Below the pieces are notes generated by a model. The model was not told where the DNA came from. It made no database searches and worked only from the letters and a program-made list of their open reading frames with translations. A stretch of DNA of 63,153 nucleotides from an uncultured Gammaproteobacteria bacterium (GTDB lineage Bacteria; Patescibacteriota; Microgenomatia; UBA12405): NCBI GenBank assembly GCA_964497945.1, contig CAZCFJ010000001.1:1-63153 (forward strand), given 5' to 3'. Within the stretch, counting starts at the first letter, position 1, and every line of letters begins with the position of its first letter. The translations under genes and the position numbers were made by a program. This document shows positions 24,376 through 63,056 of this stretch, piece after piece.

Positions 24376-25104
24376 ATGAACAAACCTATTATTGATGAGT
24401 TATCTGTCTTCTTCCCTTGTTATAACGAAGAAAAAAATATCCAAAATACTGTCTCCAAAGCTGTTCCTGTGTTAAACAGATTAGTCAAAAAATGGGAAAT
24501 TATTCTTATTAATGATGGTTCAAAAGATAAAACTGGCCAAGTTTTAGAGAAAATTCAAAAACAATATCCAAAACAAGTTAAAATCATTACCCATAATCCC
24601 AATCGCGGCTACGGTGGCGCTCTCAAAAGTGGTCTTTATAATTCCCAGTATCAATGGATTACTTTTACCGATTCCGATGGTCAATTCGATTTTTCTGAGA
24701 TTTCTAATTTGATCAAAAAACAACAAGAGACCAAAGCCGATGTTGTCATTGGTTATTATCTTTCCCGTCAAGTTTCCAAAAGTACTATTATCACTTCAAA
24801 AATTTGGGAGTTAATCGTTTTTGTTCTTTTTGGTCTCAAAGTTACCGATATTGATTGCGGCTTTAAATTAATCAATAAAAAAGTCGTTGATACAATTCCC
24901 AAGCTCGAAGCCGAAAGGGGGGCCTTCATTAGTAGCGAATTTTTAATTAAAGCCAAAAAATCCGGTTTTAAAATTGTCGAAATTGGTGTCCATCATTATC
25001 CGCGAACTGAGGGTAAGGCTACCGGACGAAACATTAAAGTTATTTTAAAAAGTTTTTCTGATCTTTTCCGTCTTTGGTTTAAAATTAACTTTCATCGTGC
25101 TTAA
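24376..25104 (+). CDS. GT2 glycosyltransferase, polyprenyl-phosphate sugar synthase type (DPM1/GtrB/ArnC-like)
   Basis: Contains FPCYNEEKNI, INDGSKDKTG, NRGYGGALKSG and FTDSDGQFD. Confidence 0.8.
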   Translation: MNKPIIDELSVFFPCYNEEKNIQNTVSKAVPVLNRLVKKWEIILINDGSKDKTGQVLEKIQKQYPKQVKIITHNPNRGYGGALKSGLYNSQYQWITFTDSDGQFDFSEISNLIKKQQETKADVVIGYYLSRQVSKSTIITSKIWELIVFVLFGLKVTDIDCGFKLINKKVVDTIPKLEAERGAFISSEFLIKAKKSGFKIVEIGVHHYPRTEGKATGRNIKVILKSFSDLFRLWFKINFHRA

Positions 25105-26581
25105 AATCAAAAAAATACTCTTTTCAAATTGGTTACTTATTTCCATCATCCTCTTGGGTTCTTTCCTTCGACTCTACAAAATAGGGGATTATATGGAATT
25201 TTTAGGTGATCAAGGCCGGGACGTTTATATTATTCGTGATTTTCTCAAAAATGGCAATTTATTTTTCATTGGTCCTCAAACTAGTATTGGTAACATGTAT
25301 CTTGGTCCTTGGTTTTATTATCTCATTGCTCCGGCTCTCTTAATTTCCAACTTCAATCCGGTTGGTCCAGCAATTTTTATTGCCTTAATTAATATCGCTA
25401 CTATAATTCTTATTTATTTTGTTTGTCAAAAATGGTTTAACCGATCTATTGGATTAATTTCCGCGTTTCTTTTTTCCATTTCTCCAGTGGTTATCAAATA
25501 TTCCAATTTTATTTGGAATCCCAATATTATGCCTTTTTTTGCCCTTTTATTTATCTATTTCTTCTTTGAAGCCATTTTTAAAAATCATTACAAGCTCTTT
25601 ATTTATGCCTCCATCGCCTTTGTTATGGCTATTAATAGCCATTATCTGGGTTTAGCCTTATTACCTTTGCCCGGTATTTGTTGGTTTTTTTTACTTATCA
25701 AGTTTATTAAATCCAAATCAAAATACCTTAAACCATTTCTCCTTAACTCATTTTTTGCTTTATTAGTCTTTATTATTTCTCTTACTCCTCAAATTCTTTT
25801 TGATATTAAACATAACGGCCAAAATATTAATGCCTTGTTCCATTTCTTTACCTACCGCGAAACTACTGTCAATATCAAACCATACAAGGCAATTCCCCAA
25901 CTGCCGGCAATTTTTAATCAAATCAATACCGACCTCATCTCTGGTTGTCAAATTATCCCGGGGATTATCATTAGTTTCGTCCTCATCACTCTAATCACCA
26001 TCTATCTTTTCCGGAAAAAATTAACCAATAAACACTATCTTATTATTTTAGGTTGGTATTTTTTTGGTTTAGTTTCCTTAGGCCTTTATAAACAACATCT
26101 TTATGCCCATTACTTTGGGTTTTTGTTTCCTGCTATTTTTATTATTGTCGGAGTTTTGATTAATAAATTTAAAATTGTTGGTATACCGCTCCTAATCTTT
26201 ATTACTTATTTATCGTTTACTAATAATCTATTTATTCAAAAGCCAAATTACCAGCTTCAACACGCCAAAAATATAGGTACCGCCATTAATAATCATCTCT
26301 ATTCGAATGATGGTTTATACAATATATCAATGTTAGCCTCATACAATGATTTCCGGGCTCAAGCCCCCAGATACTTTGTCAATCAAAATCAACTTTTATC
26401 AATGGAGGAATATTCTTCGGCCAAAACTTTATTTATCATTGTTGATGACCCATCAAAATGGCCCGATAATATTAACTCCGATATTTGGGAAATAAATGTT
26501 TTTAAAGAAAATTCCCAATATAAAGTAACTGAAGAATTTACTAGTTCCGACAATACAAAAATTTTTAAATTATCAAAATAA
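25097..26581 (+). CDS. Polytopic membrane protein, GT-C-fold glycosyltransferase-like (ArnT/PMT_2-like)
   Basis: At least 10 predicted TM segments, the first-loop acidic motif FLGDQGRDVYI, and a soluble C-terminal tail. The GTG start overlaps the upstream GT2 gene by 8 nt. Confidence 0.6.
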   Translation: MLKIKKILFSNWLLISIILLGSFLRLYKIGDYMEFLGDQGRDVYIIRDFLKNGNLFFIGPQTSIGNMYLGPWFYYLIAPALLISNFNPVGPAIFIALINIATIILIYFVCQKWFNRSIGLISAFLFSISPVVIKYSNFIWNPNIMPFFALLFIYFFFEAIFKNHYKLFIYASIAFVMAINSHYLGLALLPLPGICWFFLLIKFIKSKSKYLKPFLLNSFFALLVFIISLTPQILFDIKHNGQNINALFHFFTYRETTVNIKPYKAIPQLPAIFNQINTDLISGCQIIPGIIISFVLITLITIYLFRKKLTNKHYLIILGWYFFGLVSLGLYKQHLYAHYFGFLFPAIFIIVGVLINKFKIVGIPLLIFITYLSFTNNLFIQKPNYQLQHAKNIGTAINNHLYSNDGLYNISMLASYNDFRAQAPRYFVNQNQLLSMEEYSSAKTLFIIVDDPSKWPDNINSDIWEINVFKENSQYKVTEEFTSSDNTKIFKLSK

Positions 26582-26596
26582 ATTCAACTTATTTTG

Positions 26597-26602
26597 TATA
26601 AT
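26597..26602 (+). promoter_or_regulatory. Candidate internal -10 box (TATAAT) 6 nt upstream of ATG 26609
   Basis: ttgTATAATaaaactATG read directly. Confidence 0.3.
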
Positions 26603-26608
26603 AAAACT

Positions 26609-27376
26609 ATGAATCAATTATCTATTGTTATTCCTTGCTATAACGAAGAAAATAATCTCAAAAGAGGCGTTTTAAATCAAGTCTATGATTTTCTAAAAAA
26701 TCAGAAATTCAACTGGGAGGTTTTAGTTTGTAATGATGAATCTACTGATAATAGTCTTAAATTAATTCAAGAATTTGTTACTAAACACAAGGGTTTTCGA
26801 GTTTTAGATTTACCTCATGGTGGTAAACCATCGGCAGTTTGGGGCGGTATTCAACAAGCTAAATATCCTATTGTCTTATTTACCGACATGGATCAGTCCA
26901 CTCCTCTCAAAGAATCACTTAAATTACTGCCTTATTTTGACCAAGGATACGATGTTGTTATTGGTTCACGCGGTATTAATCGCGAAGGCAATTCTCTAAT
27001 CAGAAAAATCATGGCCCGTGGATTTCTTTTGGGTCGTCGATTATTTTTATTGTCCAATATTATTGACACCCAATGTGGTTTTAAAGCTATTAAAACTGAT
27101 TTAGCCAAAAAAATCTTTCCTAATCTCCAATTCTTTAAAGACAAAAGTGATACCAAAGGCTGGCGGGTTTCTGCCTTCGATGTCGAATTGCTTTTCATGG
27201 CTCAGAAATGGGGTTACAAAATCAAAGAAGTTTTAGTCGATTGGAAAAACGAAGATTCTAGCACTACCAAAGGTGACGATTCCAAACGCTTCAAAAAAGA
27301 ATCAAAACAGATGCTCCAGGAAATTATTCGGGTCAAACGTAATGACCTTCGTGGTTTATATGATCAAAAAAAATAA
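26609..27376 (+). CDS. GT2 glycosyltransferase, polyprenyl-phosphate sugar synthase type
   Basis: Contains IPCYNEENNL, CNDESTDNS, FTDMDQSTP and DTQCGFKAI. Confidence 0.8.
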   Translation: MNQLSIVIPCYNEENNLKRGVLNQVYDFLKNQKFNWEVLVCNDESTDNSLKLIQEFVTKHKGFRVLDLPHGGKPSAVWGGIQQAKYPIVLFTDMDQSTPLKESLKLLPYFDQGYDVVIGSRGINREGNSLIRKIMARGFLLGRRLFLLSNIIDTQCGFKAIKTDLAKKIFPNLQFFKDKSDTKGWRVSAFDVELLFMAQKWGYKIKEVLVDWKNEDSSTTKGDDSKRFKKESKQMLQEIIRVKRNDLRGLYDQKK

Positions 27377-28883
27377 TTGGGGATTAAAAATATTCCTTTC
27401 CCTTATAATTATCGGAGTCTATTTTTTTACTCGACTTCAAAATCTTACTTCGATTCCTGTTTTTGGTGATGAAGCTATTTATATTCGCTGGTCACAAATT
27501 ATCAAAAATGAAGAAACCCTTCGTTTTATTCCCCAAACTGATGGTAAACAACCACTTTTTATGTGGCTTACTGCCGTTTTACTTCGATTTCATTTTGATC
27601 CTCTTATAACTGGTCGTCTTGTGTCTGTTTTAGTCGGTTTTATTAGTCTTATTGGAATTTTTATAACTACTTGTGTGGTTATCGATTTTTTCAATCCTTC
27701 TCGTGATCCAATTAAATTCATTAAAGAATCCATCAGAGACAACTTTTATTACGGTTTTCTTTCATCATTGATTTATCTCTTTATCCCTTTTACTTTTTTC
27801 TTTGATAGATTATCAGTTCCTGATAATCTGCTTTCAGCCTTCGGTATTTGGTCACTTTTGTTTTCATTACTCTTAGCTAAATTTCGTCGTCTTGATCTGT
27901 CCTTAATCCTAGGTATGATTTTAGGTCTTGCCTGGTTAACTAAATCTCCGGCTATCTATTTTATTGCTTTATCAATTTCTACTTTTTTTGTCTTTAATTT
28001 CAAACGAATTAATACTTATTATTTGCCTATTATTTCATCGATTATTGCTTTTTTAATTTACAATATTCTTCGACTTGGTCCTCAATTTAATATGATTTCT
28101 CTTCGTAATCGGGACTATGTTTGGACCTTATCAGAAATTATCAAACATCCATTCGATCCACTAATACCTCATTTACACGATACTTTAATGATTTTTGGCC
28201 AATATATTTCTTGGCCAATTCTAATCTTCGCTCTCGTTGGTCTTTTCTTATTCTTTTTTTATCAAAAAAACACCCATCTTTTCGTTATTCTCGGGTGGGC
28301 ACTTTTACCTCTAATTGCCAATTCTGCCATGGCTAAAGTTTTTACCGCCAGATATATTCTTTTCATTATTCCTTCAATCATAATTCTTATTAGTGTCGGT
28401 TTATCTGTATTTTTTAAAAACAATATTTCTCGAATTATCTTTGTTTTAATCCTTCTTATTCCTAATTTATTTTGGCTCAAAAAAATTAGCACTGATCCTT
28501 TTCATATTCAATTATTAAGCACTGAAGCCGGTTATCTTAGCGATTGGACCTCTGGTTGGGGTATTAAAAATTGTGCTGATTATCTAAAAGAAAGATCAAA
28601 AGTCGCCAATGTTATTGTCGGTACCGAAGGTTCTTTCGGTACTTTACCCGATGGACTCCAAATCTACACTGACGGCACCAAACAACTTACTATAATCGGC
28701 CTTGGACTAGGTTTTACTTCCGTTCCTGATAATTTAAATAACGCCAAAAAATTTGGCGATGAAGTTTATATTATTGCTAATCAGTCAAGATTAAAATTAA
28801 ATTCTTTAGAAATGGATAAAGTCAAAATTATTCAAAAATATTCAAAACCAGATAACGATTATTTGTTGTTAATTCAAATATGA
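27360..28883 (+). CDS. Polytopic GT-C glycosyltransferase-like protein (PMT_2/ArnT-like)
   Basis: First-loop motif VFGDEAIYIRW, then DGKQPLFMW, many TM segments and a C-terminal soluble domain. ATG 27360 overlaps the upstream GT2 gene by 17 nt. Confidence 0.7.
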   Translation: MIKKNNWGLKIFLSLIIIGVYFFTRLQNLTSIPVFGDEAIYIRWSQIIKNEETLRFIPQTDGKQPLFMWLTAVLLRFHFDPLITGRLVSVLVGFISLIGIFITTCVVIDFFNPSRDPIKFIKESIRDNFYYGFLSSLIYLFIPFTFFFDRLSVPDNLLSAFGIWSLLFSLLLAKFRRLDLSLILGMILGLAWLTKSPAIYFIALSISTFFVFNFKRINTYYLPIISSIIAFLIYNILRLGPQFNMISLRNRDYVWTLSEIIKHPFDPLIPHLHDTLMIFGQYISWPILIFALVGLFLFFFYQKNTHLFVILGWALLPLIANSAMAKVFTARYILFIIPSIIILISVGLSVFFKNNISRIIFVLILLIPNLFWLKKISTDPFHIQLLSTEAGYLSDWTSGWGIKNCADYLKERSKVANVIVGTEGSFGTLPDGLQIYTDGTKQLTIIGLGLGFTSVPDNLNNAKKFGDEVYIIANQSRLKLNSLEMDKVKIIQKYSKPDNDYLLLIQI

Positions 28884-30130
28884 AATTTTCCCAAAAAAAA
28901 TTATTTTTAATCATGTTATTAGCCATTTCTATTCGAGTTTTTTTAATGCTTTTTAGCTATCATCCTGATCTGGCAGGACAAACCTTATCTAGCTATTTCT
29001 TTGCTTCAAAAAACATTTTTAATATTTATGACTACCTTCTTAATCTTAGCCCAAATCATCCGTTGGTAAAAAACTTTGGTGTTGGAGATATTTTTATATA
29101 TCCACCGTTAACTTATTTTACTTTGGGGATTTTCCAAAAAATTCTTTCTCCGTTCAATATTTACCCATTTATTCAAAACATTATGAATGGGGTTAATATT
29201 TATACCATCTCTAATCTCAATATAAATTTGTTTTTACTAAAACTGCCATATCTTTTTATCGATATTCTTCTGGCTTATTTATTGACCAAATTATTTAATA
29301 ACGATAAGCAAAAAAAGAATATTTTTATTTTATGGCTCTTCAACCCAGTTACTCTTTATACCACTTTTTGCATGGGGGTCTTCGATATTATTCCAGTTCT
29401 TTTTACTGTACTTTCCTTAATTTTTATAAAAGACAAAAAATATTGTTTAAGCGCTGCTATGCTGGGTATCGGAGCTGCTTACAAAATGTATCCTTTATAT
29501 TTACTCCCGATTTTATCTTTTGCCACTTCAAAAAACTTTAAAGATTTCATCAAAATCAATTTTGCTGGGGTTATTCCGTTAATATTGACTAATATTCCAT
29601 TCATAACCTCTAGTGCCTATCGATACATGGTTTTTAGTCCCAAAAGTCAAAAAATGCTTTTTATGGAATGGATGATGACTAACGCTGAAGGTATTTATCC
29701 TTTTATTTTATTAACTACCATATTAATAATATTTGCTTCTCAGAAAAAAGATTTATTCACTAAAATTCCGGCTCAATTTTATCTTATTTTTTTTCTTATT
29801 CTATTTTCAGTTACCCACTATCACCCCCAATGGTTCATTTGGGTTACCCCGTTTATTTTAATTGACTTAGTTGCAAACAATTTTAAAAATTTCTGGAGCT
29901 ACCTATCTTTATTTGCTATTTATACTTTTATTGTCTTCACTTTTGAAAACTCACTCTCAGTTGGTTTATTCGCTGTTATTAATACCAATCTGAATAATTT
30001 TACAGGAACCGCTAATATTATTTCCAAATTTACTGATATTTTTACCTTAAAAAGCATCCTTAGGAGTGTTTTTGCTGGAATTAGTTTATACTTAAGCCAC
30101 GATTTGCTTGTTAAAAAACAATCAGAATAA
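28880..30130 (+). CDS. Polytopic membrane protein, a divergent member of the second GT-C-like family in this cluster
   Basis: The N-terminus (SYHPDLAGQ ... IYPPLTYF) is similar to the 41674, 42907c and 46863 proteins. ATGA overlap with the upstream gene. Confidence 0.5.
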   Translation: MKFSQKKLFLIMLLAISIRVFLMLFSYHPDLAGQTLSSYFFASKNIFNIYDYLLNLSPNHPLVKNFGVGDIFIYPPLTYFTLGIFQKILSPFNIYPFIQNIMNGVNIYTISNLNINLFLLKLPYLFIDILLAYLLTKLFNNDKQKKNIFILWLFNPVTLYTTFCMGVFDIIPVLFTVLSLIFIKDKKYCLSAAMLGIGAAYKMYPLYLLPILSFATSKNFKDFIKINFAGVIPLILTNIPFITSSAYRYMVFSPKSQKMLFMEWMMTNAEGIYPFILLTTILIIFASQKKDLFTKIPAQFYLIFFLILFSVTHYHPQWFIWVTPFILIDLVANNFKNFWSYLSLFAIYTFIVFTFENSLSVGLFAVINTNLNNFTGTANIISKFTDIFTLKSILRSVFAGISLYLSHDLLVKKQSE

Positions 30131-30135
30131 TCTTT

Positions 30136-31923
30136 ATGTCTAAAATTTTTTCAAAAATTCGAACATTTATCTTTTGGTTTATTAAACAAAAATACTTTCC
30201 TTACGTTTTAATTATTGTCTTATCAATTCCTGCTTTTTTCTTCTTTTTTAAACCGGGAGTATATTGGAACATGCATGATGATATGCAAATGATTCGTCAG
30301 TTAGAATTTGAAAAATGCCTTTATGACGGCCAAATTCCTTGTCGATGGACCCCTGACTTAGGATTTGGTTATGGTTATCCTTTATTTAATTTTTATCCAC
30401 CATTACCGAGTATTATTGGCCAAGTTTTTCGTACTTTTGGTTTTGACTTTATGACCACAGTGAAATTAGTGGCCGTTCTTCAATTTATTTTAGCTGCTTG
30501 TTTTATGTATTTACTTGTCTCATCAATTTTTGGTATTACCGGCGGTCTTATTTCCGCTTTATTTTATACTTATGCTCCTTACCATGCTCTTAACATTTAT
30601 GTCCGTGGAGCTATGAATGAAGCTTGGGCATCTGTCTTTTTTCCACTTATTCTCTATTTTTCTAGAAAACTTATCTTAGAAAAGAAACCAAAATCCATCA
30701 TTGGTTTAGGAATATCATTCAGTTGTCTTCTCTTGTCACACAACCCCATGGCTTTAACTTTTACCCCAATACTTTTTATCTGGTGTATTTTTTGGATTAT
30801 AACCGAATTTTCCAAAAAAACGTCAATTTTAAAAAATATTCAAAAACAACTTTCTACTATTTGGGGACTTTATTTGTCCGGCATTTTATCTATCGGTCTG
30901 GTCGCTTTTTTTACCTTTCCTGTTCTTACAGAAACTAAATATGTCAGCATTGATTCCATGTTTAATGGCTATTATTATTTTTCAGCCCATTTTGTTTCGC
31001 TTTTCCAAATGTTTATTAGTAACTTTTGGGGTGATGGGGGATCAATCTGGGGACCAAATGATAGTATGTCATTTATGATTGGTTATCTTCATTGGGCAAT
31101 TCCTCTTTTTATTACCATCATGGTTTTTGTCAATTTTTTAAAAACCAAAAAAATTAACTCAAAGATTCTTCTTTCTGTTATTTTTGCTTTTATTGGGTTA
31201 TTTACCGCTTTTATGTGTCATGAAAAATCGACTCCTCTTTGGTTCATTTTTCCGATTATTCAAAAGGTTCAGTTTCCTTGGAGATTTTTAAACTTAACTA
31301 CCTTTGCTTTTTCTTTTACTGTAGGTGTTTTGCCAATAATTTTTTCCCAAATTTTCCGACTCAAAGATAAATTTATTAGTATTATAACCACTATTATTTT
31401 AATAATTTTATTTATCGTCAATATTAAATATTTCTATCCGGTTCACAGTGGACCTATTACTGATAACCAAAAGTTTTCTGGTTTAAATTGGGAACGACAA
31501 ATAACCTCGGGTATCTATGACTATCTTCCAAAAACTGCTGCTAAAGCCGCTATTTCGCCGGCTCGGGAATATATTGATGAAATTGACCCAAAAGAGGCTC
31601 TTATAAATATTTCTGGACAGCAAAAAGGCACAGATTGGTTACTTTTTACAGTTTCTTTAAGTCAGGAAGCAAAAATTACCATTTCCCAGTTAGCCTTTCC
31701 TAACTTTATTATTACCGATAACAATCAAAAAATTAACTATCAAATTGACCCTGAATTCGGCAGAATGATCATCAATTTAAAATCAGGTCAACATCAAATC
31801 TTTGTTAAATTAACCAACACTCCAATAAGAACTATTTCTAATTACATCTCACTTGTAACTCTAATCGGTTTAAGTGTCTATCTATTAAAACCTCTATGGA
31901 CCAAATTGATCTTCAAGAAATAA
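30136..31923 (+). CDS. Large polytopic membrane protein (595 aa), GT-C-like, no paralog in the window
   Basis: First loop MHDDMQMIRQLEFEKCLYDGQIPCRWTPDLGFGYGYPLFNFYPPLP, more than 10 TM segments, and a C-terminal soluble domain followed by a TM segment. Confidence 0.5.
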   Translation: MSKIFSKIRTFIFWFIKQKYFPYVLIIVLSIPAFFFFFKPGVYWNMHDDMQMIRQLEFEKCLYDGQIPCRWTPDLGFGYGYPLFNFYPPLPSIIGQVFRTFGFDFMTTVKLVAVLQFILAACFMYLLVSSIFGITGGLISALFYTYAPYHALNIYVRGAMNEAWASVFFPLILYFSRKLILEKKPKSIIGLGISFSCLLLSHNPMALTFTPILFIWCIFWIITEFSKKTSILKNIQKQLSTIWGLYLSGILSIGLVAFFTFPVLTETKYVSIDSMFNGYYYFSAHFVSLFQMFISNFWGDGGSIWGPNDSMSFMIGYLHWAIPLFITIMVFVNFLKTKKINSKILLSVIFAFIGLFTAFMCHEKSTPLWFIFPIIQKVQFPWRFLNLTTFAFSFTVGVLPIIFSQIFRLKDKFISIITTIILIILFIVNIKYFYPVHSGPITDNQKFSGLNWERQITSGIYDYLPKTAAKAAISPAREYIDEIDPKEALINISGQQKGTDWLLFTVSLSQEAKITISQLAFPNFIITDNNQKINYQIDPEFGRMIINLKSGQHQIFVKLTNTPIRTISNYISLVTLIGLSVYLLKPLWTKLIFKK

Positions 31924-35032: not shown

Positions 35033-35053
35033 TAAACTTACATTATTAAACTT

Positions 35054-35989: not shown

Positions 35990-35996
35990 TTTATCT

Positions 35997-37711: not shown

Positions 37712-37726
37712 GGTATTATAAAGTTA

Positions 37727-38908: not shown

Positions 38909-38909
38909 A

Positions 38910-41648: not shown

Positions 41649-41673
41649 ATACAACACCGTTATATTGCACTTT

Positions 41674-44274: not shown

Positions 44275-44347
44275 ACCTTACTTCTTTAAAAAACGGCTAT
44301 TTTTTAGTGTAAAATGAAACCATATAACCAACCCTAACTAAGTTTAA

Positions 44348-56299: not shown

Positions 56300-57129
56300 T
56301 GTTGAATAAAATGAAATCCGCACTTTCAGTCACTTTAGCTACTTATAACGAATCAAAAAATATTACCCGATGCTTAGATGCCATCAAAGATATTGCCGAT
56401 GAAATCATTGTTGTCGACGGCCAATCACAGGATAACACTGTGGAACTTATCAAAAAATTTAAACAAGCCAAAGTTATTTCTACCACCAATAAACCCATGT
56501 TTCATATTAATAAACAAATGGGTATTGATGCATGCCAAAGTAGTTGGATTCTCCAGCTCGATGCCGACGAAATCGTTACTCCAGAACTTAAAAAAGAGAT
56601 ATCTTCGATAATAAAAGTTAATCCATCAGAAATTAAAGAAAACGGTTTTTGGATTCCCCGGAAAAATTATTTTCTAGGAACTTTTCTCAAAAAAGGCGGT
56701 CAATATCCTGATCCTACAATCAGATTTTATAAAAATGGCAAAGCTCACTTACCTTGTAAAGATGTTCATGAACAAGCCGTTGTCGATGGTCAAGTTGGCT
56801 GGCTCAAAAACGACTTAGAACATTACGCTGACACTTCATTTTCTCTCTATTTACTTCGAGCCAATCGTTATACTACGCTTTTAGCAAATGAATTAAAAGA
56901 AAAAAATACCAAAATAAACTTTCTAAACTTTATAAAATTTTACTTTTTTAAACCAACTTGGTGGTTTTTAAAAACATTTTTCCGCCATCGTGGTTATGTC
57001 GATGGTTTTCCAGGATTTGTTTTTTCATTTTTTTCCGGACTTCGATTCGCTATTGCTTACACCAAATACTATGAATTAGTAAAAACTAAACGCGATATAA
57101 ATTTATCCCAAGACTGGGACAAAAAATGA
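56299..57129 (+). CDS. GT2 glycosyltransferase (same group as 35054 and 36920)
   Basis: Contains LSVTLATYNESKNI, VVDGQSQDNT and QLDADE, plus the C-terminal GYVDGFPGFVF..YTKYYE. Confidence 0.8.
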   Translation: MLNKMKSALSVTLATYNESKNITRCLDAIKDIADEIIVVDGQSQDNTVELIKKFKQAKVISTTNKPMFHINKQMGIDACQSSWILQLDADEIVTPELKKEISSIIKVNPSEIKENGFWIPRKNYFLGTFLKKGGQYPDPTIRFYKNGKAHLPCKDVHEQAVVDGQVGWLKNDLEHYADTSFSLYLLRANRYTTLLANELKEKNTKINFLNFIKFYFFKPTWWFLKTFFRHRGYVDGFPGFVFSFFSGLRFAIAYTKYYELVKTKRDINLSQDWDKK

Positions 57130-58220
57130 ATAAAAAAATAAGAATTGCTATTGATATTTCTCCTACTATTGACGGTAATGCTATTAGAGGAGTAGGGTAT
57201 TACACCCAAAATTTAGTCGATGCTTTACAAAAAGAAATAAAAACCAACCCAGATTACAACAACTGGTCTATTAACCTTATCAAAAATAGCCAAGAGCTAA
57301 AAGCTAATAGCTACAAGCTAATACATTATCCTTACTTTGATCCATTCAAATTAACTCTACCTCAAACAAAAGATATTCCTACAGTTATCACTGTCCACGA
57401 TCTCATCCCTCGCCAGTTTAAATCCCATTTTCCGGTTGGTATTAAAGGTGAATTTAAATGGCTTTTCCAAAAAAACCGTCTTAAAAAAGTTTCATCTATT
57501 ATTACTGTCTCCGAATACTCCAAAAAAATTATTAACCAAATAATTAAATATCCACTTTCCAAAATAACCGCCATTTATGAGGCTGCTGATTTTAGTTTCA
57601 AACAAACAAAAGATAAATCAAAATTAAAAGAAATTAAAAATAAATATTCTCTACCAGAGAAATTTGTTTTATTTGTTGGTGATATTAATTGGAATAAAAA
57701 TATTCCTAATTTAGTTAGGGCTTGTCTTAAAAACAAATATCCTCTAGTCATTGTTGGTTCTGCTGCCACCAAAAAAGATGTTCCTGACCATCCTTGGACA
57801 CAGGATCTTCGTTGGCTCCAGTCTAAGGCTCTAAAGATCCAACGTTCTAACGCTCTAATATTCACCGGTTTTGTCCCAGACGAAGACTTACCTCTTATTT
57901 ACAATCTTGCCACTATTTACTGCCAACCGTCATTTGCAGAAGGTTTTGGCTTACCATTACTTCAAGCTATGCAGTCGGGCTGTCCTATTGCCTTTAGTCG
58001 CGATACCTGTTTGCCGGAAATTATGGATAGTTGTGGTGTTTCATTTAATCCCCGTTCTGTTTCTGATATTTCCTCTGCTCTCAAAAAACTTTGGCTTAAC
58101 TCTAGTCTTCGTCAGAAATATCAAAAATGCGGTCTCCAAAGATCAAAATTCTTTAAATGGGAAAAAACTGCCAAACAAACCCTAAGTGTCTACAAAAGTT
58201 TACTTGGCTATGAAAAATAA
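57126..58220 (+). CDS. GT4 (GT-B fold) glycosyltransferase
   Basis: Contains FVGDINWNKNIP and EGFGLPLLQAMQSGCP. Confidence 0.85.
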   Translation: MNKKIRIAIDISPTIDGNAIRGVGYYTQNLVDALQKEIKTNPDYNNWSINLIKNSQELKANSYKLIHYPYFDPFKLTLPQTKDIPTVITVHDLIPRQFKSHFPVGIKGEFKWLFQKNRLKKVSSIITVSEYSKKIINQIIKYPLSKITAIYEAADFSFKQTKDKSKLKEIKNKYSLPEKFVLFVGDINWNKNIPNLVRACLKNKYPLVIVGSAATKKDVPDHPWTQDLRWLQSKALKIQRSNALIFTGFVPDEDLPLIYNLATIYCQPSFAEGFGLPLLQAMQSGCPIAFSRDTCLPEIMDSCGVSFNPRSVSDISSALKKLWLNSSLRQKYQKCGLQRSKFFKWEKTAKQTLSVYKSLLGYEK

Positions 58221-59013
58221 CACCCACTTTCTTTCGATTATCGTTCCAATATACAAACAAGCCGACACTATTCAAAACGATCTAGAGAATATCATTCAAG
58301 TATTAGATCAAATCCGATATGAATATGAGATTATTGCCGTTATTGACGGTATAAAAGTTGACAAATCATATCAAAATGCCAAAAAAATTAAATCAAAAAA
58401 TCTTAAAGTCATTGGTTACCAACACAATCACGGTAAGGGTTATGCTGTCCGTTACGGCATGGCTCAAACAAAAGGTGATTACGTCGGTTTTATCGATGCT
58501 GGTATGGAAATTGATCCCAATGGTATCTCTATGATTCTAGAGCACATGGAATGGTATAACGCCGATGTTATTGTTGGATCAAAACGTCATCCCGCCTCAC
58601 AAGTAAATTATCCATTAGACAGGAAAATTATTAGTTTCGGTGGTCACCTAATCGCCAAATATTTACTTGGTATTAATGTTTATGATACTCAGGCCGGTCT
58701 TAAAATTTTCCGTCGTCAAGTTCTAATCAAAGTTCTTCCTCGACTTATTATTAGGACTTATGCCTTTGATTTGGAAATACTAGCTGTTGCTAACAACCTT
58801 GGTTTTACCAAAATTTACGAGGCTCCAATAAAGTTAAATTATAACTTTCAAAGTTTAACTCATGCCACGGGATTAAAAGTTATTCGTCAATGTCTTATTG
58901 ATGCTTTAGCAGTTTTTTATCGACTAAAAATACTCCATTATTACGATGATAAAAATAAAAGAAAATGGATTTACGATCCAGATCTTGAGATGAGAATTAA
59001 CACTGGTTTATGA
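58210..59013 (+). CDS. GT2 glycosyltransferase, polyprenyl-phosphate sugar synthase-like
   Basis: Contains LSIIVPIYKQ, HNHGKGYAVRYG, FIDAGMEIDP and DTQAGLKIF. Confidence 0.7.
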   Translation: MKNNTHFLSIIVPIYKQADTIQNDLENIIQVLDQIRYEYEIIAVIDGIKVDKSYQNAKKIKSKNLKVIGYQHNHGKGYAVRYGMAQTKGDYVGFIDAGMEIDPNGISMILEHMEWYNADVIVGSKRHPASQVNYPLDRKIISFGGHLIAKYLLGINVYDTQAGLKIFRRQVLIKVLPRLIIRTYAFDLEILAVANNLGFTKIYEAPIKLNYNFQSLTHATGLKVIRQCLIDALAVFYRLKILHYYDDKNKRKWIYDPDLEMRINTGL

Positions 59014-59990
59014 AAAAAATTTTATTTTCTATTATTATTCCTGTCAGACGAAGTAATCCCTACCTTAAAGAAACAATTAATCATCTCAAGAGCCAAACCA
59101 AAAAAAACTTTGAAACTATAATTATTACCGATAAAATCTCTGGTTCGGCTAATCCTTCAGAAAAAAGAAACCTAGGCGCCCAAAAAGCCAAAGGTAAATA
59201 TTTGGTTTTTTTTGATGACGATTCATATCCATCTTTAAATTATTTTAAAAATGCCGAAAAATTAGTCAAAAAATATACAAATTTTGCTGGTTTTTGCGGT
59301 CCATGTTTAACTCCAACCAAAGATGATACCTTCAAACAAGCATCAGGTTTAGTCTGGTCAAGTTGGTTTGGTAGTGGTGGAGCTGGTGTCTATCGCAACA
59401 GTAAACAATCACCCCGTTTTGTTGATGACTACCCCAGTGTCAATTTAATTATTAAAAAAACCGATTTTATTAAAGCCGGCCAATTTAATCAAAATTACTG
59501 GCCTGGAGAAGATACGGTTCTTTGTTTAAATCTCACCAAAAAATTAAATCTTAAAATATATTACCATCCATCGCTTACCGTTTATCACCACCGTCGTTCA
59601 GTTTTAATTCATCACCTTCAACAAATTACCCGATACGCTATTCAACGTGGTTTTTTTGCCAAAAAATTTCCCCAAACCAGTCTAAGAATCGGTTATATAA
59701 TGCCATCAATTTTTGTTTTTTATTTAATAATATTAATTATTAATTATTTAATTATTAATTATAAATTATTGTACCTTCCATTATATTTATATTTATCAAT
59801 ATTAACATTAACTTTTATAAAGTTTGTTTTGAAAACAAAAAAAATTTTTCTTTCTATTATTTCTACACTCACTATACCTATTACCCACATTTATTACGGT
59901 ATACTATTCCTACATGGCTTATCTAAAAAAGAGGTCAAATTCAAAGCCCACCAAATCAATCGCAAAAACGGACACTACATTGGCGGTTAA
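59010..59990 (+). CDS. GT2 glycosyltransferase with C-terminal transmembrane helices
   Basis: Contains FSIIIPVRRSN and FFDDDSYP. The C-terminal ~100 aa are hydrophobic (IFVFYLIILIINYLIINY...). Confidence 0.75.
   Translation: MKKILFSIIIPVRRSNPYLKETINHLKSQTKKNFETIIITDKISGSANPSEKRNLGAQKAKGKYLVFFDDDSYPSLNYFKNAEKLVKKYTNFAGFCGPCLTPTKDDTFKQASGLVWSSWFGSGGAGVYRNSKQSPRFVDDYPSVNLIIKKTDFIKAGQFNQNYWPGEDTVLCLNLTKKLNLKIYYHPSLTVYHHRRSVLIHHLQQITRYAIQRGFFAKKFPQTSLRIGYIMPSIFVFYLIILIINYLIINYKLLYLPLYLYLSILTLTFIKFVLKTKKIFLSIISTLTIPITHIYYGILFLHGLSKKEVKFKAHQINRKNGHYIGG
59733..59762 (+). repeat. Perfect 15-nt tandem duplication (ttaattattaattat x2) encoding LIINY-LIINY
   Basis: Read directly, inside the TM region of the 59010 gene. 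Confidence 0.9.
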
Positions 59991-61419
59991 AAGTATTGCC
60001 ATCTCTTATCCACCACTAAAATCTAACAAAGGAACAGCATTTTTGTCCCAAAACCGTCAGTTTCAATGGACAAATACAGGGAATGTTATTTATCCAGTTA
60101 TTCCGGCTTATGCTGCCACTTTACTTCAATCAAAAGGAATAAAAGTTTTTTGGGATGATGCTATTGCTCAAAAATTAACTTTTAATCAATGGTTTCAACG
60201 TCTTAAAATCAATAAACCCGACCTAATCGTTATTGAAACCAAAACCCCTGTTATTAAAAAACATTGGGAAATTATCAAAAAAATTCGTCAAAAAAGTTTG
60301 GAAATTGGTAATTGGAACTTGGTTATTGTCCTTATGGGTGATCATGTCACTGCTCTTCCACAAGAATCAATCAAAAAATGTCCGGTTGATTATGTTCTAG
60401 TTGGTGGCGACTACGATTTTTTACTTGATGAACTTATTACTCAGATCAATTCTAATAACCCTCCAAAAAATAAAATTTTCAAAACTCAAAAAAATCACGA
60501 CTTAAATAGTCTTCCAATTATTGATCGTCAACTAACTCAATGGCAACTTTATGCCTACAACAACACTAATTATAAATACAAACCAGGATCTTATGTTATG
60601 TCTGGCCGCGATTGCTGGTGGGGTAAATGTAATTTTTGTTCCTGGACAACGTTGTTCCCAGGAAAATGTTTTCGATCATTCAGTGTTGAACATACTATTT
60701 CCGAAATAGAAAATTTAATCAATAATTTTGGTGTTAAAGAAATTTTTGATGATTCGGGTACTCTTCCAATAGGCAAATGGCTTAACGATTTTTGTCATCA
60801 AATGATTGACAAAGGACTAAACCAAAAAGTCTCTTTTGGTTGTAATATGCGATTTGGTGCCCTAAATCAAAAAGAATATCTTCTTATGAAAAAAGCTGGT
60901 TTTCGTTTTATTTTGTATGGGCTAGAATCTGCCAATCAATCAACTTTAGATTTTATTAATAAAAACGAAAAAACTAGTGATGTTATTAATACCCTCAAAA
61001 TGGCCAAAAATGCCGGGCTAGAACCTCACATTACTGTCATCATTGGTTTTCCAAACGAAACTTTAAAAAATGCCCAAAATACCCTTAATTTAGCTAGAAA
61101 AATTTTTCAAGAAAATTTAGCTGATAGCCTTCAAGCCACCTTACTTATCCCTTATCCTGGCACACCTCTATATAAGTATTGTCAGCAAAATAAATTACTT
61201 TTAACCAAAGATTGGGATAAATATGATATGCGTCAACCAATTATTAAGTCATCAATTTCTCCCAAAAAACAAATTGAACTTGTTCAAAATTTATTCAAAG
61301 GTATATTAACTCCAAAATTTTTAGTCAAAAAAATTCTCTCTATTCATTCAATCGCCGATATAAAACATCTTAGTAATTACGCCCTAAAATACATTCAAAA
61401 ATTAAAAGACTTTTCATGA
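59914..61419 (+). CDS. B12-binding-domain radical SAM enzyme (class B-like). The start is uncertain: ATG 59914, or TTG 59980.
   Basis: N-terminal B12-binding-like region (VLMGDHVTALP..VDYVLVGGDYDF), the Cys cluster SGRDCWWGKCNFCSW, and a later GLESAN motif. Confidence 0.75.
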   Translation: MAYLKKRSNSKPTKSIAKTDTTLAVKSIAISYPPLKSNKGTAFLSQNRQFQWTNTGNVIYPVIPAYAATLLQSKGIKVFWDDAIAQKLTFNQWFQRLKINKPDLIVIETKTPVIKKHWEIIKKIRQKSLEIGNWNLVIVLMGDHVTALPQESIKKCPVDYVLVGGDYDFLLDELITQINSNNPPKNKIFKTQKNHDLNSLPIIDRQLTQWQLYAYNNTNYKYKPGSYVMSGRDCWWGKCNFCSWTTLFPGKCFRSFSVEHTISEIENLINNFGVKEIFDDSGTLPIGKWLNDFCHQMIDKGLNQKVSFGCNMRFGALNQKEYLLMKKAGFRFILYGLESANQSTLDFINKNEKTSDVINTLKMAKNAGLEPHITVIIGFPNETLKNAQNTLNLARKIFQENLADSLQATLLIPYPGTPLYKYCQQNKLLLTKDWDKYDMRQPIIKSSISPKKQIELVQNLFKGILTPKFLVKKILSIHSIADIKHLSNYALKYIQKLKDFS

Positions 61420-62432
61420 TTAAAGTTTCTTTTATTATTCCCACTCTCAATGCTCAAAAAGTTTTAGAAACCTGTCTCAAATCAATCACCCATCAAGAAT
61501 TCACCAAATCAGATTATGAAATTATTGTCATCGATGGTGGTTCTACTGATAATACTATTAAAATTGCCAAAAAATATAATTCCATTATTCTTCAAAATCC
61601 TCTTAAAACTGCCGAAGCAGGTAAAGCCATTGGTGTTAAACAAGCCCAGGGAAAATTCATTTGTCTTATTGATTCAGATAATATTTTACCTACATCAAAT
61701 TGGCTTCAAAAAATGCTTTTCCCTTTTAATCACGATCCAAAAATTGTTGGTACTGAACCAATCAAATTTACCTATAGACCCCATTCTGGATTAATTGAAA
61801 GATATTCTGCCCTAATTGGCGCCAACGATCCCTACGCCTTTATTACTGGTGTTTATGATAAACAAAATTACATCAATAACAAATGGACTGGCCTTAAAAT
61901 AGAACAAATCGATAAAAATAAATATATTTTAATAAAATTAAATTCGACTTCAGCCATACCTACTATTGGTGCTAATGGAACTATTTTTAAAGCCAATTTT
62001 TTAAAAGAAAATTTAACATCGGACTATTTGTTCGATATTGATATTATTTCTCAAGTTCTTCATCAAACTCAACAACCCATCTATTTTGCTAAGGTTAAAA
62101 CTGATATTATTCATACTTATTGCGAATCGTCGATCAAAAAATTTATCATTAAACAAAATCGTCGTCTTGTCGACTATTACACTTACAAATCATTTCGTCA
62201 TTATCAATGGCAAACACCAAATTTCCATTATCAAATAAAATTTATTCTTTATACTGTTACTATAATTCCATTAATATATCATTCTCTATTGGGTTTTTCC
62301 AAAAAAAACGATCCAGTTTGGTTTTTACATCCGTTCTTTGTTATCACTACGTTCTTTATTTACATCTTAGTTACTCTCAAACTCAAACTAGGTTTACTAA
62401 AACCAATCGATAGATCATCATGGAGACAATGA
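61416..62432 (+). CDS. GT2 glycosyltransferase with C-terminal transmembrane helices
   Basis: Contains VSFIIPTLNA, VIDGGSTDNT and LIDSDN, plus C-terminal hydrophobic segments. Confidence 0.75.
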   Translation: MIKVSFIIPTLNAQKVLETCLKSITHQEFTKSDYEIIVIDGGSTDNTIKIAKKYNSIILQNPLKTAEAGKAIGVKQAQGKFICLIDSDNILPTSNWLQKMLFPFNHDPKIVGTEPIKFTYRPHSGLIERYSALIGANDPYAFITGVYDKQNYINNKWTGLKIEQIDKNKYILIKLNSTSAIPTIGANGTIFKANFLKENLTSDYLFDIDIISQVLHQTQQPIYFAKVKTDIIHTYCESSIKKFIIKQNRRLVDYYTYKSFRHYQWQTPNFHYQIKFILYTVTIIPLIYHSLLGFSKKNDPVWFLHPFFVITTFFIYILVTLKLKLGLLKPIDRSSWRQ

Positions 62433-63056
62433 TTATTGTCTAATTGCAATACCGGTAATTTGATCTCCAATATCCTCAATAATGTAGCCTTTTTCTTTTA
62501 ACAAAGAAAAACATTTTTGCTTTTCACCGGGATTTAAATATGCATATTCAAAAAAAATTAATTCCGGCTTAATCTTTTCAAAATTAATCTGTTTAATTAC
62601 TTGATAATCATATCCCTCAACATCAATCGAAAAAACATCAACTTTTGTTACTTTATTTTTTATTAAAAGTTTTTCTAAAGTTGAACATTTAACCACACTT
62701 TTTACTACCTGACCCTCAGAAAAGTTCCAATTTTTCATATTATTCAACATAAGTTTTTTATCAAAAGACCCCAATTGGTCATAACCAGAACCAAGCTCCT
62801 TGGTTTTCTTTAAATGCCAAAAATCTTTTTTTCCATTACGTGTTGAAATAGCTTTTTTTTCCAAAATTATCCCAGGAATATTTTTATATACTTTTTTTAA
62901 TCTCTCAAAGACATAAGGAACTGGTTCAACCATAATTCCTCTCCATTTATATCTAAAAACAAATTCACCTAAAGGATCACCAGATAAACCGTCATTCGCC
63001 CCAATATTAACAAAATAAACTTTACCTTTCTTTCTCATATTAATATCCAACAACAA
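62433..63056 (-). CDS. FkbM-family SAM-dependent methyltransferase. The frame stays open to the window edge, so the true 5' end may lie beyond 63153.
   Basis: Contains FVNIGANDGLSGDPL, VEPVPYVFERL and FSIDVEGYDYQVIK. Candidate starts are ATG 63038 and TTG 63056. Confidence 0.75.
   Translation of the reverse strand: MLLDINMRKKGKVYFVNIGANDGLSGDPLGEFVFRYKWRGIMVEPVPYVFERLKKVYKNIPGIILEKKAISTRNGKKDFWHLKKTKELGSGYDQLGSFDKKLMLNNMKNWNFSEGQVVKSVVKCSTLEKLLIKNKVTKVDVFSIDVEGYDYQVIKQINFEKIKPELIFFEYAYLNPGEKQKCFSLLKEKGYIIEDIGDQITGIAIRQ

Follow-up and report, generated by a model that had tools for sequence, protein, structure and literature searches.

A candidate envelope-glycan locus with 15 GT-C-type membrane glycosyltransferases conserved in Candidatus Shapirobacteria and other Microgenomates

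What does a bacterium whose genome appears to be about 1 Mb in size build with 15 membrane-embedded glycosyltransferases encoded almost side by side? The question is raised by a DNA stretch of 63,153 nucleotides (contig CAZCFJ010000001.1, in its entirety called the window below), in which positions 24376–63056 hold 32 contiguous open reading frames (ORFs), 30 of them on the forward strand and only 42907c and 62433c reversed (genes are named by their first coordinate, with c for the reverse strand). An earlier reading of the letters without database searches (the sequence-only reading) had described this region as an envelope-glycosylation cluster dominated by glycosyltransferases (GTs) of the GT-C type, whose product would be built largely on the outer face of the membrane. 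Its inventory was reproduced exactly from the ORF list, Pfam scans and predicted transmembrane (TM) segments: 15 polytopic GT-C proteins, 11 GT2 and 2 GT4 enzymes, a Wzx flippase, a B12 radical S-adenosylmethionine (SAM) enzyme, an FkbM methyltransferase and an orphan (Table 1). The observation is confirmed, and the interpretation placed on it is supported, with the refinements given below. We consider it probable, if well short of certain, that Candidatus Shapirobacteria and other Microgenomates share a conserved locus for an envelope glycan, which is assembled on a lipid carrier in two compartments.

TM segments were counted by hydropathy prediction, families were assigned by Pfam and NCBIfam scans, and structural models were calculated with AlphaFold2 (AF2) and compared with known structures using Foldseek. 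Synteny counts refer to 41 loci of at least 21 kb from different species, whose ORFs were compared with the window proteins. The extent of 39 kb is a minimum, since the window stops at 63153.

GT-C enzymes, flippase and donor synthases

The 15 polytopic proteins form three groups, with ten PMT_2/ArnT-like members, four PIG-M/GT87-like members and a single one (33296) that is predicted to have the fold of an oligosaccharyltransferase (OST). Each has 7–10 predicted TM segments, and in all 15, not just in most as the sequence-only reading had it, an acidic first-loop residue follows a lysine/arginine-rich N-terminus and the first TM segment (TM1), which places the loop outside the cell. The motif in this loop is D-E in the PMT_2-type proteins (GDQ in 25097 and HDD in 30136), H-P/S-D in the PIG-M-like ones (GD in 41665) and GFWGPNGHD in 33296. 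Judged by sequence, profile or predicted fold, all 15 are GT-C enzymes, as the claimed GT-C dominance of the cluster had implied; their use of polyprenyl-phosphate-sugar donors is a prediction.

Nine proteins match the PMT_2 or PMT models of Pfam, eight above the cut-off (25097, 27273, 40215, 44348, 48139, 49809, 53035 and 54650) and 51455 below it; PF02366 (PMT) exceeds its cut-off of 22.7 bits in 40215, 49809, 53035 and 54650, with the D-E motif present. The MIR domain, which in eukaryotic PMTs is lumenal and lies between TM7 and TM8, was returned by no Pfam scan of the cluster, and the C-terminal domain of the PMT_2-type proteins (477–581 aa) matches no family. They appear better filed as PMT_2 (ArnT/GT83/GT39-like, bacterial type) than as eukaryotic-type PMT. 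Six of them (44348, 48139, 49809, 51455, 53035 and 54650; group A) are paralogues with a mutual identity of 27–35% (E 1e-30 to 1e-86), distantly linked to 25097 and 27273 by sequence comparison. Homologues of 53035 with 61–85% identity, found in more than 100 clusters, bear Ca. Shapirobacteria annotations as GT39 or phospholipid carrier-dependent glycosyltransferase. NCBIfam scans also gave weak matches, well below the cut-off, of 25097 (6e-9) and 53035 (1e-14) to TIGR03663, the flippase activity-associated protein Agl23 of archaeal N-glycosylation.

Among the PIG-M/GT87-like proteins, 41665, 42907c and 46848 (group B) are about 25% identical to each other and are linked to 28880. A profile of 29 group B sequences (profile A3) matches the solved glycosylphosphatidylinositol (GPI) mannosyltransferase 1 (PIG-M/Gpi14; PDB 23gf_B) at E 2e-15, with a further match at 4e-13, and its loop-1 aspartate, D36, is invariant. 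Homology together with the loop-1 aspartate thus places 28880, 41665, 42907c and 46848 with GT50/GT87.

For the divergent protein 30136, a sequence search against PDB chains gave nothing meaningful, and Pfam scans of the C-terminal domains of 53035, 44348, 30136 and 33296 were uninformative. Some of its homologues carry PF13231 and the name "glycosyltransferase family 39". The AF2 model of 30136 (pLDDT 84.2, pTM 0.87) matched AglB/STT3 (1e-5), Pmt4 (1e-4) and then AftA, ArnT, EmbA/B and AftD, all within E 1e-5 to 1e-3.

The protein 33296, which directly follows the flippase gene in 41 of 41 long loci, belongs to a family of its own. Its homologues are annotated as hypothetical proteins; no Pfam match, PF02516 (STT3) included, was found in any of 37 family members even at E≤10, 33296 has no match in NCBIfam, and PDB was searched without a match both with the sequence and with a profile of the 37 family sequences. 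The AF2 model (pLDDT 89.5, pTM 0.89) agrees in overall fold with the OSTs, which have a GT-C core with 13 TM segments and a mixed alpha/beta C-terminal domain. Eighteen of its top 21 Foldseek matches are OST catalytic subunits (human and yeast STT3, AglB, PglB; E 2.5e-10 to 1e-6, TM-score 0.45–0.56) and the other three are the C-mannosyltransferase DPY19 (about 3e-7), followed by AftA (1e-4) and ArnT (4e-4); the isolated C-terminal domain of AglB also matches the model (E 1e-2, TMt 0.50). For both 33296 and 30136 the high-probability matches are to GT-C proteins only, and transporters appear only at E>0.05 and probability <0.2, so that the polytopic proteins do not turn out to be transporters, the outcome that the sequence-only reading had named as fatal to it.

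Residues E154, S155, F157, W158 and D283 are invariant in 79 orthologs of 33296 with 39–100% identity, and H43, D44, W47, H48, K211, R328, W372, N373, T374 and others are kept in at least 95% of them; the acidic residues of the external loops, along with basic ones, may form the metal- and phosphate-binding site expected of a GT-C enzyme. The family comprises 1575 representative clusters (50% identity) at E≤1e-3 and 741 at E≤1e-30, and an alignment-based scan found relatives in 316 species-representative genomes, titled Shapirobacteria, Woesebacteria, Blackburnbacteria, Microgenomates or "Patescibacteria group". By sequence 33296 is not a member of the STT3 family; its model makes it a candidate for a new GT-C family with the OST fold.

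Two features of this family were considered and set aside. A K-D-Y-x-G stretch just past the last TM segment of 33296, the position that WWDYG has in the OSTs, is not a degenerate WWDYG, as it occurs in the Shapirobacteria subset only and D425 is not kept family-wide; and homologues of 1012 aa are not fusions with Wzx, as they bear an extra N-terminal extracytoplasmic domain. Such long forms (1010–1166 aa) make up roughly one third of the best-scoring representatives, the copy in the window being a short form. In one of them (locus L003, 13158–16202) the additional N-terminal part of about 420 aa is a predicted extracytoplasmic domain; no Pfam match was found in the N-terminal extension of about 400 aa of the long forms.

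The flippase 31896 belongs to the Wzx/MOP family by its Polysacc_synt match and its TM count, close to the usual 12 or so; NCBIfam likewise gave MOP flippase (8e-36) and O-glycosylation flippase (2e-24). Three of the GT2 enzymes (24376, 26594 and 58186) are more similar to lipid-phosphate-sugar synthases (archaeal dolichyl-phosphate-mannose (Dol-P-Man) synthase, GtrB, ArnC) than to glycan-extending GT2s. Among solved structures, 24376 matches ArnC (3e-17), GtrB sll0501 (2e-16) and Dol-P-Man synthase (8e-9), and 26594 matches GtrB (9e-14), Dol-P-Man synthase (1e-12) and ArnC (7e-9). In NCBIfam, 24376 matches ArnC, PgfS and PpgS, all below cut-off, and the three proteins further give matches, far under the equivalog cut-offs, to AglJ and dolichyl-phosphate hexose transferase. 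GtrB and ArnC proteins have 320–370 aa and C-terminal TM helices, and an architecture without TM segments is that of Dpm1; in 24376, 26594 and 58186 (242–275 aa) hydropathy prediction gave no C-terminal TM pair. We do not claim that they belong to the GtrB/ArnC subfamily; a role as polyprenyl-phosphate-sugar synthases looks likely. The presence of three such enzymes in the cluster supports the proposal that assembly on the outer face uses lipid-phosphate-monosaccharide donors.

The genes are tightly packed. An independent gene caller, applied to the same DNA in locus L001, gave overlaps of 1–25 nt at 14 of 14 successive forward-strand junctions, and with these start/stop overlaps the genes look co-translated. 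For six genes the sequence-only reading had given ATG starts slightly 3' of the first possible start (27360, 33317, 40248, 41674, 46863 and 54677); independent gene calls agree with 46863 and 54677, and a database record of 571 aa agrees with 33317.

Conservation across Microgenomates

The core of the locus, consisting of GT2–GT-C pairs, 30136, Wzx, 33296, three GT2 genes, a GT4 gene and a further GT2 gene, is syntenic in all 41 long loci, which come from Shapirobacteria, Woesebacteria, Blackburnbacteria and other Microgenomates. Wzx, 33296, GT2c, GT2e and GT4a were found in every one of them and the other members of the core in 33 to 39 (Table 1), while the identity of the 33296 homologues drops to 39–40%. 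Per 21.7 kb, these loci have a median of eight GT-C-like proteins (range 4–9) and seven GT2/GT4 enzymes. A distal module (A5-A6-GT2h-GT4b-GT2i-GT2j-radical SAM-GT2k) is also kept in other Shapirobacteria. The middle region (40215–51458) differs between genomes, and in some relatives YfhO-like GT-Cs of 750–830 aa or PTPS_related proteins stand in place of 40215–46093. In short, a variable array of GT-C paralogues links two conserved modules.

On the contig Ga0395526_000001 (1,117,440 bp), two overlapping loci (L003 and L004) together show an uninterrupted cluster with 12 GT-Cs that measures at least 38 kb, or at least 3.4% of the contig. Together with a related locus on a complete Woesebacteria chromosome of 916,571 bp, this fits the assumption of the sequence-only reading that the genome is a reduced one of about 1 Mb. 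The group A paralogues are about 30% identical to each other, and each has an ortholog with 55–63% identity, in the same order, on the 1,117,440-bp contig. As the orthologs are closer than the paralogues and the order is shared, the duplications are old and every copy has been kept. This points to distinct, non-redundant specificities of the retained paralogues rather than to recent amplification.

Some relatives carry further tailoring genes: two genes for epimerases/dehydratases of nucleoside-diphosphate (NDP) sugars at the distal end, class I SAM methyltransferases, and the large YfhO-like or PTPS_related GT-C-like proteins (L085, 19399–21527; L086, 18338–18940 and 20953–21641; in Woesebacteria, for example, L069, 19129–19776). 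The ORFs of about 217 aa in Woesebacteria loci, considered as initiators of the PglC type, are in fact class I SAM methyltransferases.

Homologues of 53035, 33296 and 30136 carry the name Candidatus Shapirobacteria (Patescibacteria, alternatively called the candidate phyla radiation (CPR); Microgenomates), and by these names the organism is a member of this group. Many third-party annotation (TPA) records of metagenome-assembled genomes that represent species and carry a cluster syntenic with that of Microgenomates are titled "uncultured Gammaproteobacteria bacterium", and one "Clostridia bacterium"; set against the gene content, the Gammaproteobacteria titles are evidently unreliable.

A protein identical to 53035 is also encoded on a JGI and an ENA metagenome contig, which match the window over 43035–63153 (20.1 kb) at 99.98% and over 44657–63062 (18.4 kb) at 99.97% nucleotide identity. 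Given these near-identical contigs from two other assemblies and the even GC content across the locus (0.27–0.33), a chimeric assembly, the second outcome that would have undone the sequence-only reading, is excluded for practical purposes; the deep synteny tells against it as well. The ENA contig differs from the window by four mismatches and one gap, and gene calling on it splits 49809 into parts of 137 and 417 aa (L002, 5153–6801, equivalent to window 49809–51458); this reflects either a population variant with a frameshift or a fault in the assembly.

How the glycan may be built

In the scheme that we favour, cytoplasmic GT2 and GT4 enzymes (35054–38910, and probably 56299–57126 and 59010) would build an oligosaccharide on polyprenyl phosphate, and 31896, a flippase by family, would carry the lipid-linked oligosaccharide to the outer face. 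The Dpm1/GtrB/ArnC-like enzymes 24376, 26594 and 58186 would charge polyprenyl phosphate with single sugars, giving three or more donors, and 14 outward-facing GT-Cs (ten PMT_2/ArnT-like, four PIG-M/GT87-like) would lengthen the glycan and add branches to it outside the cell, with one linkage made by each of the anciently diverged paralogues; three donor synthases for 14 GT-Cs imply that donors are shared. The flipped glycan would then be transferred by 33296 to an acceptor, preferably a surface protein, for example a protein of the S-layer, a pilin or the DUF11 protein anchored by sortase; or else the LCP enzyme encoded nearby would join it to peptidoglycan. Tailoring of the product would fall to the B12 radical SAM enzyme and the FkbM methyltransferase, and the variable GT-C arrays between the modules may diversify it between lineages. 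The genes 24376 and 26594 are each followed directly by a PMT_2 GT-C gene, an arrangement known from GtrB/GtrC-type modules, and glycosylation outside the cell by a GT2 enzyme together with a GT-C has precedents in CsbB/YfhO and GtlB (PMC5836110) and in the streptococcal Pgf machinery (bioRxiv 10.1101/2022.10.10.511621).

Pfam and NCBIfam scans returned no Wzy or Wzz family among the cluster proteins, and no polysaccharide co-polymerase among the cluster and flanking proteins scanned. Since no Wzy/Wzz family was returned, transfer en bloc is favoured over polymerisation, and the pairing of Wzx with 33296 in every locus examined and the OST-first fold ranking argue in the same direction. A far-reaching form of this idea, in which the locus would be a bacterial counterpart of the lipid-linked-oligosaccharide (LLO) pathway of the endoplasmic reticulum (ER) and archaea, and 33296 a new STT3-fold, WWDYG-less family of OSTs acting en bloc on surface proteins, seems to us unlikely; were it true, complex general protein glycosylation would be a core trait of a major ultra-small bacterial lineage.

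Several observations weigh against the two-compartment scheme or against an OST role of 33296. The WWD motif was absent from all family members examined, in sets of 37 and of 80, and no sequence signal of STT3 was detected in the family, so that this role is argued from the fold ranking. OSTs also head the ranking for the model of the PMT_2-like protein 30136, at a strength about 100,000-fold below that for 33296, and therefore the ranking alone cannot assign a function. No initiating phosphoglycosyltransferase (WecA/MraY or PglC/WbaP; Bac_transf, Glycos_transf_4) was found in the cluster or among the window ORFs scanned; the lipid-linked primer has for this reason to be assumed to be made elsewhere, or the glycan to be built on a monophosphate carrier, as used in haloarchaea. 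The window holds no GtrA-like flippase for lipid-phosphate-monosaccharides and no genes for NDP-sugar synthesis that would show which sugars are used. Finally, the choice between surface protein and wall as acceptor is one that we infer, and the locus may hold more than one pathway.

This last point leads to an arrangement that we hold to be rather unlikely, in which the region is a glycosylation island with several independent systems side by side, for instance a Wzx-dependent glycan, two or three GtrB/GtrC-like decoration modules with different targets and the distal radical SAM module. It would account for the two separately conserved modules (24376–39785 and about 51455–62432), for the region between them, where YfhO-like or PTPS_related proteins replace 40215–46093 in some genomes, and for GT2–GT-C pairs that look self-contained; yet on the 1.117-Mb contig the modules adjoin and run in the same direction, the start/stop overlaps suggest very long transcription units, and the shared donors implied by three synthases for 14 GT-Cs tie the parts together. 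The LCP gene suggests another end point, close to the arabinogalactan logic of the sequence-only reading, which we regard as possible, if doubtful: a wall polymer begun in the cytoplasm on polyprenyl diphosphate, flipped by Wzx, elaborated by the GT-Cs and ligated to peptidoglycan by LCP 19186, with 33296 merely extending the glycan. The LCP gene lies 4.2 kb upstream of the cluster and, in the distant locus L022, directly 3' of it, but adjacency was seen in that one other locus only, and in the window the gene is not in the cluster operon, as a release factor gene, the FtsEX operon and a gene on the reverse strand lie between the two. A large set of non-redundant GT-C paralogues is usual where a complex polysaccharide is built, as the mycobacterial Emb, Aft and Mpt enzymes illustrate. 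AftA, EmbA/B and AftD are among the fold matches and the PIG-M/GT87-like enzymes resemble PimE-type mannosyltransferases; on the other hand, Pfam and NCBIfam scans gave no Emb-type, decaprenyl-phospho-arabinose or TagO/WecA-type initiator family, and the strict pairing of Wzx with 33296 (41 of 41) and the OST-first ranking would be left unexplained.

The product might also stay in the membrane as a lipoglycan, that is, a glycolipid resembling lipomannan (LM)/lipoarabinomannan (LAM) or GPI, started by PimA/B-like GT4 enzymes and extended outside by the PIG-M/PimE-like and PMT_2-like GT-Cs. We find this quite improbable. Four GT-Cs do match GPI mannosyltransferase 1 or GT87, but these four are the less conserved part of the locus, 28880 being present in 16 of the 41 loci; GT4b matches the glycolipid-anchor and diacylglycerol glucosyltransferase models IagA/BgsA and Mgs of NCBIfam, but weakly and far below the family cut-offs; and a Wzx with an adjacent OST-fold enzyme is, to our knowledge, not part of the known GPI pathways or of those for phosphatidylinositol mannosides (PIM), LM and LAM. 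That the locus is an artefact, a chimeric assembly or a set of transporters, is effectively refuted: nothing was found in its favour except that five proteins have no direct Pfam match, and against it stand the near-identical contigs with even GC content, a gene order shared by dozens of genomes, and the low rank of transporters in both fold searches.

Compared with known systems, the locus for which we propose two-compartment assembly is a member of none and is alike in logic only. With the LLO pathway of ER N-glycans, GPI assembly and the archaeal Agl pathways it shares features such as cytoplasmic GT2/GT4 enzymes, a MOP/Wzx flippase, Dpm1/Alg5-like synthases, an OST-fold GT-C, methyltransferases (AglP in the Agl pathway of Haloferax), outward-facing GT-Cs of ALG/PIG-M-like and PMT-like kinds, and weak matches to the AglJ and Agl23 models; it differs in having no STT3 signature, no WWDYG and no ALG7/WecA-type initiator, in its bacterial host, in an acceptor protein that is only a candidate, and in GT-Cs far more numerous than in any described archaeal or bacterial N-glycosylation locus. 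The mycobacterial analogy drawn by the sequence-only reading holds as logic and not for the parts. Assembly of arabinogalactan and LAM (EmbA/B/C, AftA-D, PimE, Mpt, Lcp1) likewise involves many GT-Cs, few polyprenyl-phosphate-sugar donors, an LCP enzyme (here encoded nearby) and GT87/PimE-like members, and AftA, Emb and AftD are structural matches at the fold level only; however, Pfam and NCBIfam scans of the cluster proteins gave no Emb-type or arabinose-pathway family, and here 15 GT-Cs are packed into 39 kb of a genome of about 1 Mb, whereas mycobacterial GT-C genes are spread over 4.4 Mb and galactan export is of the ABC type instead of Wzx. LLO assembly in the ER or in archaea is at least as good a parallel, given that Wzx, Dpm1-like GT2s, PIG-M/ALG-like GT-Cs and a GT-C with the OST fold occur together.

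The three-component systems of Gram-positive bacteria and the Gtr type (CsbB/GtrB, a flippase and YfhO/GtlB/GtrC; PgfS/PgfM1/PgfM2) have counterparts in the pairs 24376/25097 and 26594/27273; PgfS and ArnC are among the top NCBIfam matches, below cut-off, and YfhO-like proteins sit in the loci of relatives. In those systems, however, one or two GT-Cs decorate a polymer made elsewhere, and the locus described here has no GtrA-type flippase and its synthases have no C-terminal TM segments. The Campylobacter pgl locus (PglB, PglK, PglA/H/I/J) is also a compact bacterial operon of cytoplasmic GTs, a flippase and an OST-type GT-C, PglB being a fold match of 33296 (E 5e-7); its flippase, PglK, is of the ABC type rather than Wzx, it has a single GT-C and no extension outside the cell, and its PglC initiator, bacillosamine genes and WWDYG have no equivalent in the window locus.

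In the literature searched on glycosyltransferases of Shapirobacteria, CPR and Microgenomates, we saw neither this locus nor an enrichment of GT-Cs described, an absence that is suggestive rather than conclusive, as most subscription-journal papers lie outside the searchable set; with this proviso, the architecture appears undescribed, as the sequence-only reading had supposed. The nearest report is a one-line remark on 29 glycosyltransferase genes in a complete Microgenomates genome (PMC7143001), and a 2024 review of Patescibacteria leaves glycans unmentioned. The enzyme families are individually known; new are the GT-C density and dominance (15 within 39 kb, in a genome of about 1 Mb), the class-wide conservation and the unrecognised OST-fold family.

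A glycan locus of about 39 kb has been retained in spite of genome reduction (on a relative's 1.117-Mb contig it takes up at least 3.4%), in bacteria that shed most biosynthesis. As the core is kept across Shapirobacteria, Woesebacteria and Blackburnbacteria, the product would be central to the envelope, and it perhaps serves host attachment or phage evasion; the nature of the glycan and the attachment role are what we infer. The locus offers a specific gene set for probing the cell-surface chemistry of CPR bacteria. Its 14 or more diverged, predicted lipid-phosphate-sugar-dependent transferases are a natural collection for enzymology and glyco-engineering, and the 33296 family (316 species genomes, 1575 clusters) would be a new GT-C family without a Pfam or NCBIfam model, with OSTs as its closest structures.

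Gene list, flanking genes and minor observations

Features of the cluster and two of its neighbours are listed in Table 1. Among the less conserved or distal genes, the radical SAM enzyme 59914 has its nearest NCBIfam matches, below cut-off, in HpnJ (1e-36) and BchE (7e-33), both of the B12 class, and it probably tailors a sugar or lipid.

Table 1. Predicted genes of the cluster and two flanking genes, with the number of the 41 long loci that hold each gene where counted. Values such as 1e-30 are E-values; cut-off refers to that of the family model; TM, transmembrane segments.
Feature	Coordinates	Strand	Loci of 41	Evidence and remarks
LCP (LytR-CpsA-Psr) glycopolymer ligase, candidate final transferase to wall	19186–20211	+		LytR_cpsA_psr 5e-25; TIGR00350 above cut-off
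Surface protein, candidate acceptor	23635–24264	-		Signal peptide; DUF11/CLIPPER, DUF11 7e-13; VPETG, then TM, then RKKIRGF
GT2a, soluble, polyprenyl-P-sugar synthase-like	24376–25104	+		Glycos_transf_2 1e-30; paired with 25097
C1, GT-C, PMT_2-type	25097–26581	+	38 (best match)	PMT_2 3.4e-10, above cut-off; 9 TM; GDQ
GT2b, polyprenyl-P-sugar synthase-like	26594–27376	+	33	Glycos_transf_2 1e-24; paired with 27273
C2, GT-C, PMT_2-type	27273–28883	+	35	PMT_2 1.1e-6, above cut-off; 8 TM; GDE; start 27360 in the sequence-only reading
C3, GT-C, GT87/PIG-M-like	28880–30130	+	16	GT87 29.2 bits (cut-off 25); HPD; row of profile A3
C4, GT-C, divergent PMT_2-like core member	30136–31923	+	39	C-terminal beta-sandwich, then final TM helix; no Pfam match
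Wzx/MOP-family flippase	31896–33338	+	41	Polysacc_synt_3 7e-40, 137.5 bits; Polysacc_synt 73 bits; 11 TM
OSTL, predicted OST-fold GT-C	33296–35032	+	41	Fold only; family without Pfam or NCBIfam model; 571 aa from likely start 33317
GT2c, cytoplasmic, conserved core	35054–35989	+	41	Glycos_transf_2 4e-19
GT2d, cytoplasmic, rhamnosyltransferase-like	35997–36929	+	39	Glycos_transf_2 4e-15; TIGR01556 4e-17, below cut-off
GT2e, cytoplasmic	36920–37711	+	41	Glycos_transf_2 5e-14
GT4a, cytoplasmic GT-B	37727–38908	+	41	Glycos_transf_1 3e-27
GT2f, cytoplasmic	38910–39785	+	37	Glycos_transf_2 6e-23
Orphan, 160 aa	39785–40267	+	3	No Pfam/NCBIfam match; one TM at residues 7–25; close relatives only
C6, GT-C, PMT_2/PMT-type, variable region	40215–41648	+		PMT_2 1.8e-10; PMT 25.5 bits (cut-off 22.7); 10 TM; VDE; start 40248 in the sequence-only reading
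B1, GT-C, PIG-M/GT87-like	41665–42993	+		Alg6_Alg8 2.5e-4, below cut-off; paralogous to 42907c (5e-22) and 46848; start 41674 in the sequence-only reading
B2, GT-C, PIG-M/GT87-like	42907–44259	-		No Pfam match; 8 TM; paralogous to 41665 and 46848 (1e-17 to 1e-22); sole reversed GT-C; lowest-GC stretch
A1, GT-C, PMT_2	44348–46093	+		PMT_2 2.8e-8; 27–35% identity to the five other A paralogues; GDE
GT2g, usually paired with a B-type GT-C	46090–46887	+		Glycos_transf_2 6e-28; GT2g-B3 pair again in L004, L017 and L031
B3, GT-C, PIG-M/GT87-like	46848–48152	+		No Pfam match; 9 TM; 28880 at 2e-9, 42907c at 8e-17; first row of profile A3; likely start 46863
A2, GT-C, PMT_2	48139–49812	+		PMT_2 5e-11; SDE; L004 ortholog 55% identical
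A3 paralogue, GT-C, PMT_2/PMT	49809–51458	+		PMT_2 2e-13; PMT 34.6 bits; L004 ortholog 61% identical
A4, GT-C, PMT_2	51455–53038	+		PMT_2 weak, 0.0036; 35% identical to 53035, E 1e-59; WDE
A5, GT-C, PMT_2/PMT	53035–54690	+		PMT_2 7e-14; PMT 31.7 bits
A6, GT-C, PMT	54650–56299	+		PMT 25.0 bits (cut-off 22.7); 34% identical to 53035, E 2e-86; likely start 54677
GT2h, conserved distal module	56299–57129	+		Glycos_transf_2 1e-19; same position in L004, L085 and L086
GT4b, conserved distal module	57126–58220	+		Glycos_transf_1 8e-24; same position in L004, L085 and L086
GT2i, polyprenyl-P-sugar synthase-like	58186–59013	+		Glycos_transf_2 1.5e-22; solved structures: Dol-P-Man synthase 3.5e-11, GtrB 4e-10
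GT2j	59010–59990	+		Glycos_transf_2 and Glyco_tranf_2_2; three C-terminal TM between residues 230 and 301
B12-binding (class B) radical SAM enzyme	59914–61419	+		Radical_SAM 6e-14; weak B12-binding match; kept in L004, L085 and L086
GT2k	61416–62432	+		Glycos_transf_2 2e-24; TM at 274–292 and 301–319, GtrB/ArnC-like architecture
FkbM-family methyltransferase	62433–63056	-		Methyltransf_21 3e-16; TIGR01444 56 bits, above cut-off; window end

The LCP gene at 19186, a sortase at 3776c and a sortase substrate with VPETG at 23635c are present, in keeping with the LCP ligase and sortase system that the sequence-only reading had noted nearby. The sortase (3776–4567, reverse strand) is class C-like and is located 19 kb upstream of 23635c; the latter is the neighbour of GT2a in a number of Shapirobacteria loci.

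An operon immediately upstream of the cluster (20317–23545) encodes a TM protein of 163 aa, FtsE (20811), FtsX (21436) and a coiled-coil protein with a domain similar to Peptidase_C39_2 (22331). It resembles the "patescibacterial operon", in which an ABC ATPase system is combined with a papain-like peptidase on a membrane-anchored coiled coil (bioRxiv 10.1101/2025.01.14.632903). A second C39-like secreted protein is encoded at 15895. Housekeeping genes in the upstream 24 kb encode SecA, a class II (D/K/N-type) aminoacyl-tRNA synthetase, SerRS, RelA/SpoT, BipA and a peptide chain release factor. Scans of the whole window for tRNA genes and for Rfam families at the gathering threshold were negative.

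GC skew is strongly negative (-0.25 to -0.31) over window positions 42001–56000, and AT skew is likewise negative over most of the GT-C arrays. The skew in 42001–56000 is probably due to the codon content of membrane proteins; an unusual strand composition disparity has been reported for a Microgenomates genome (PMC7143001). The GC content reaches its minimum, 0.27, over 42001–44000, at the reversed gene 42907c.

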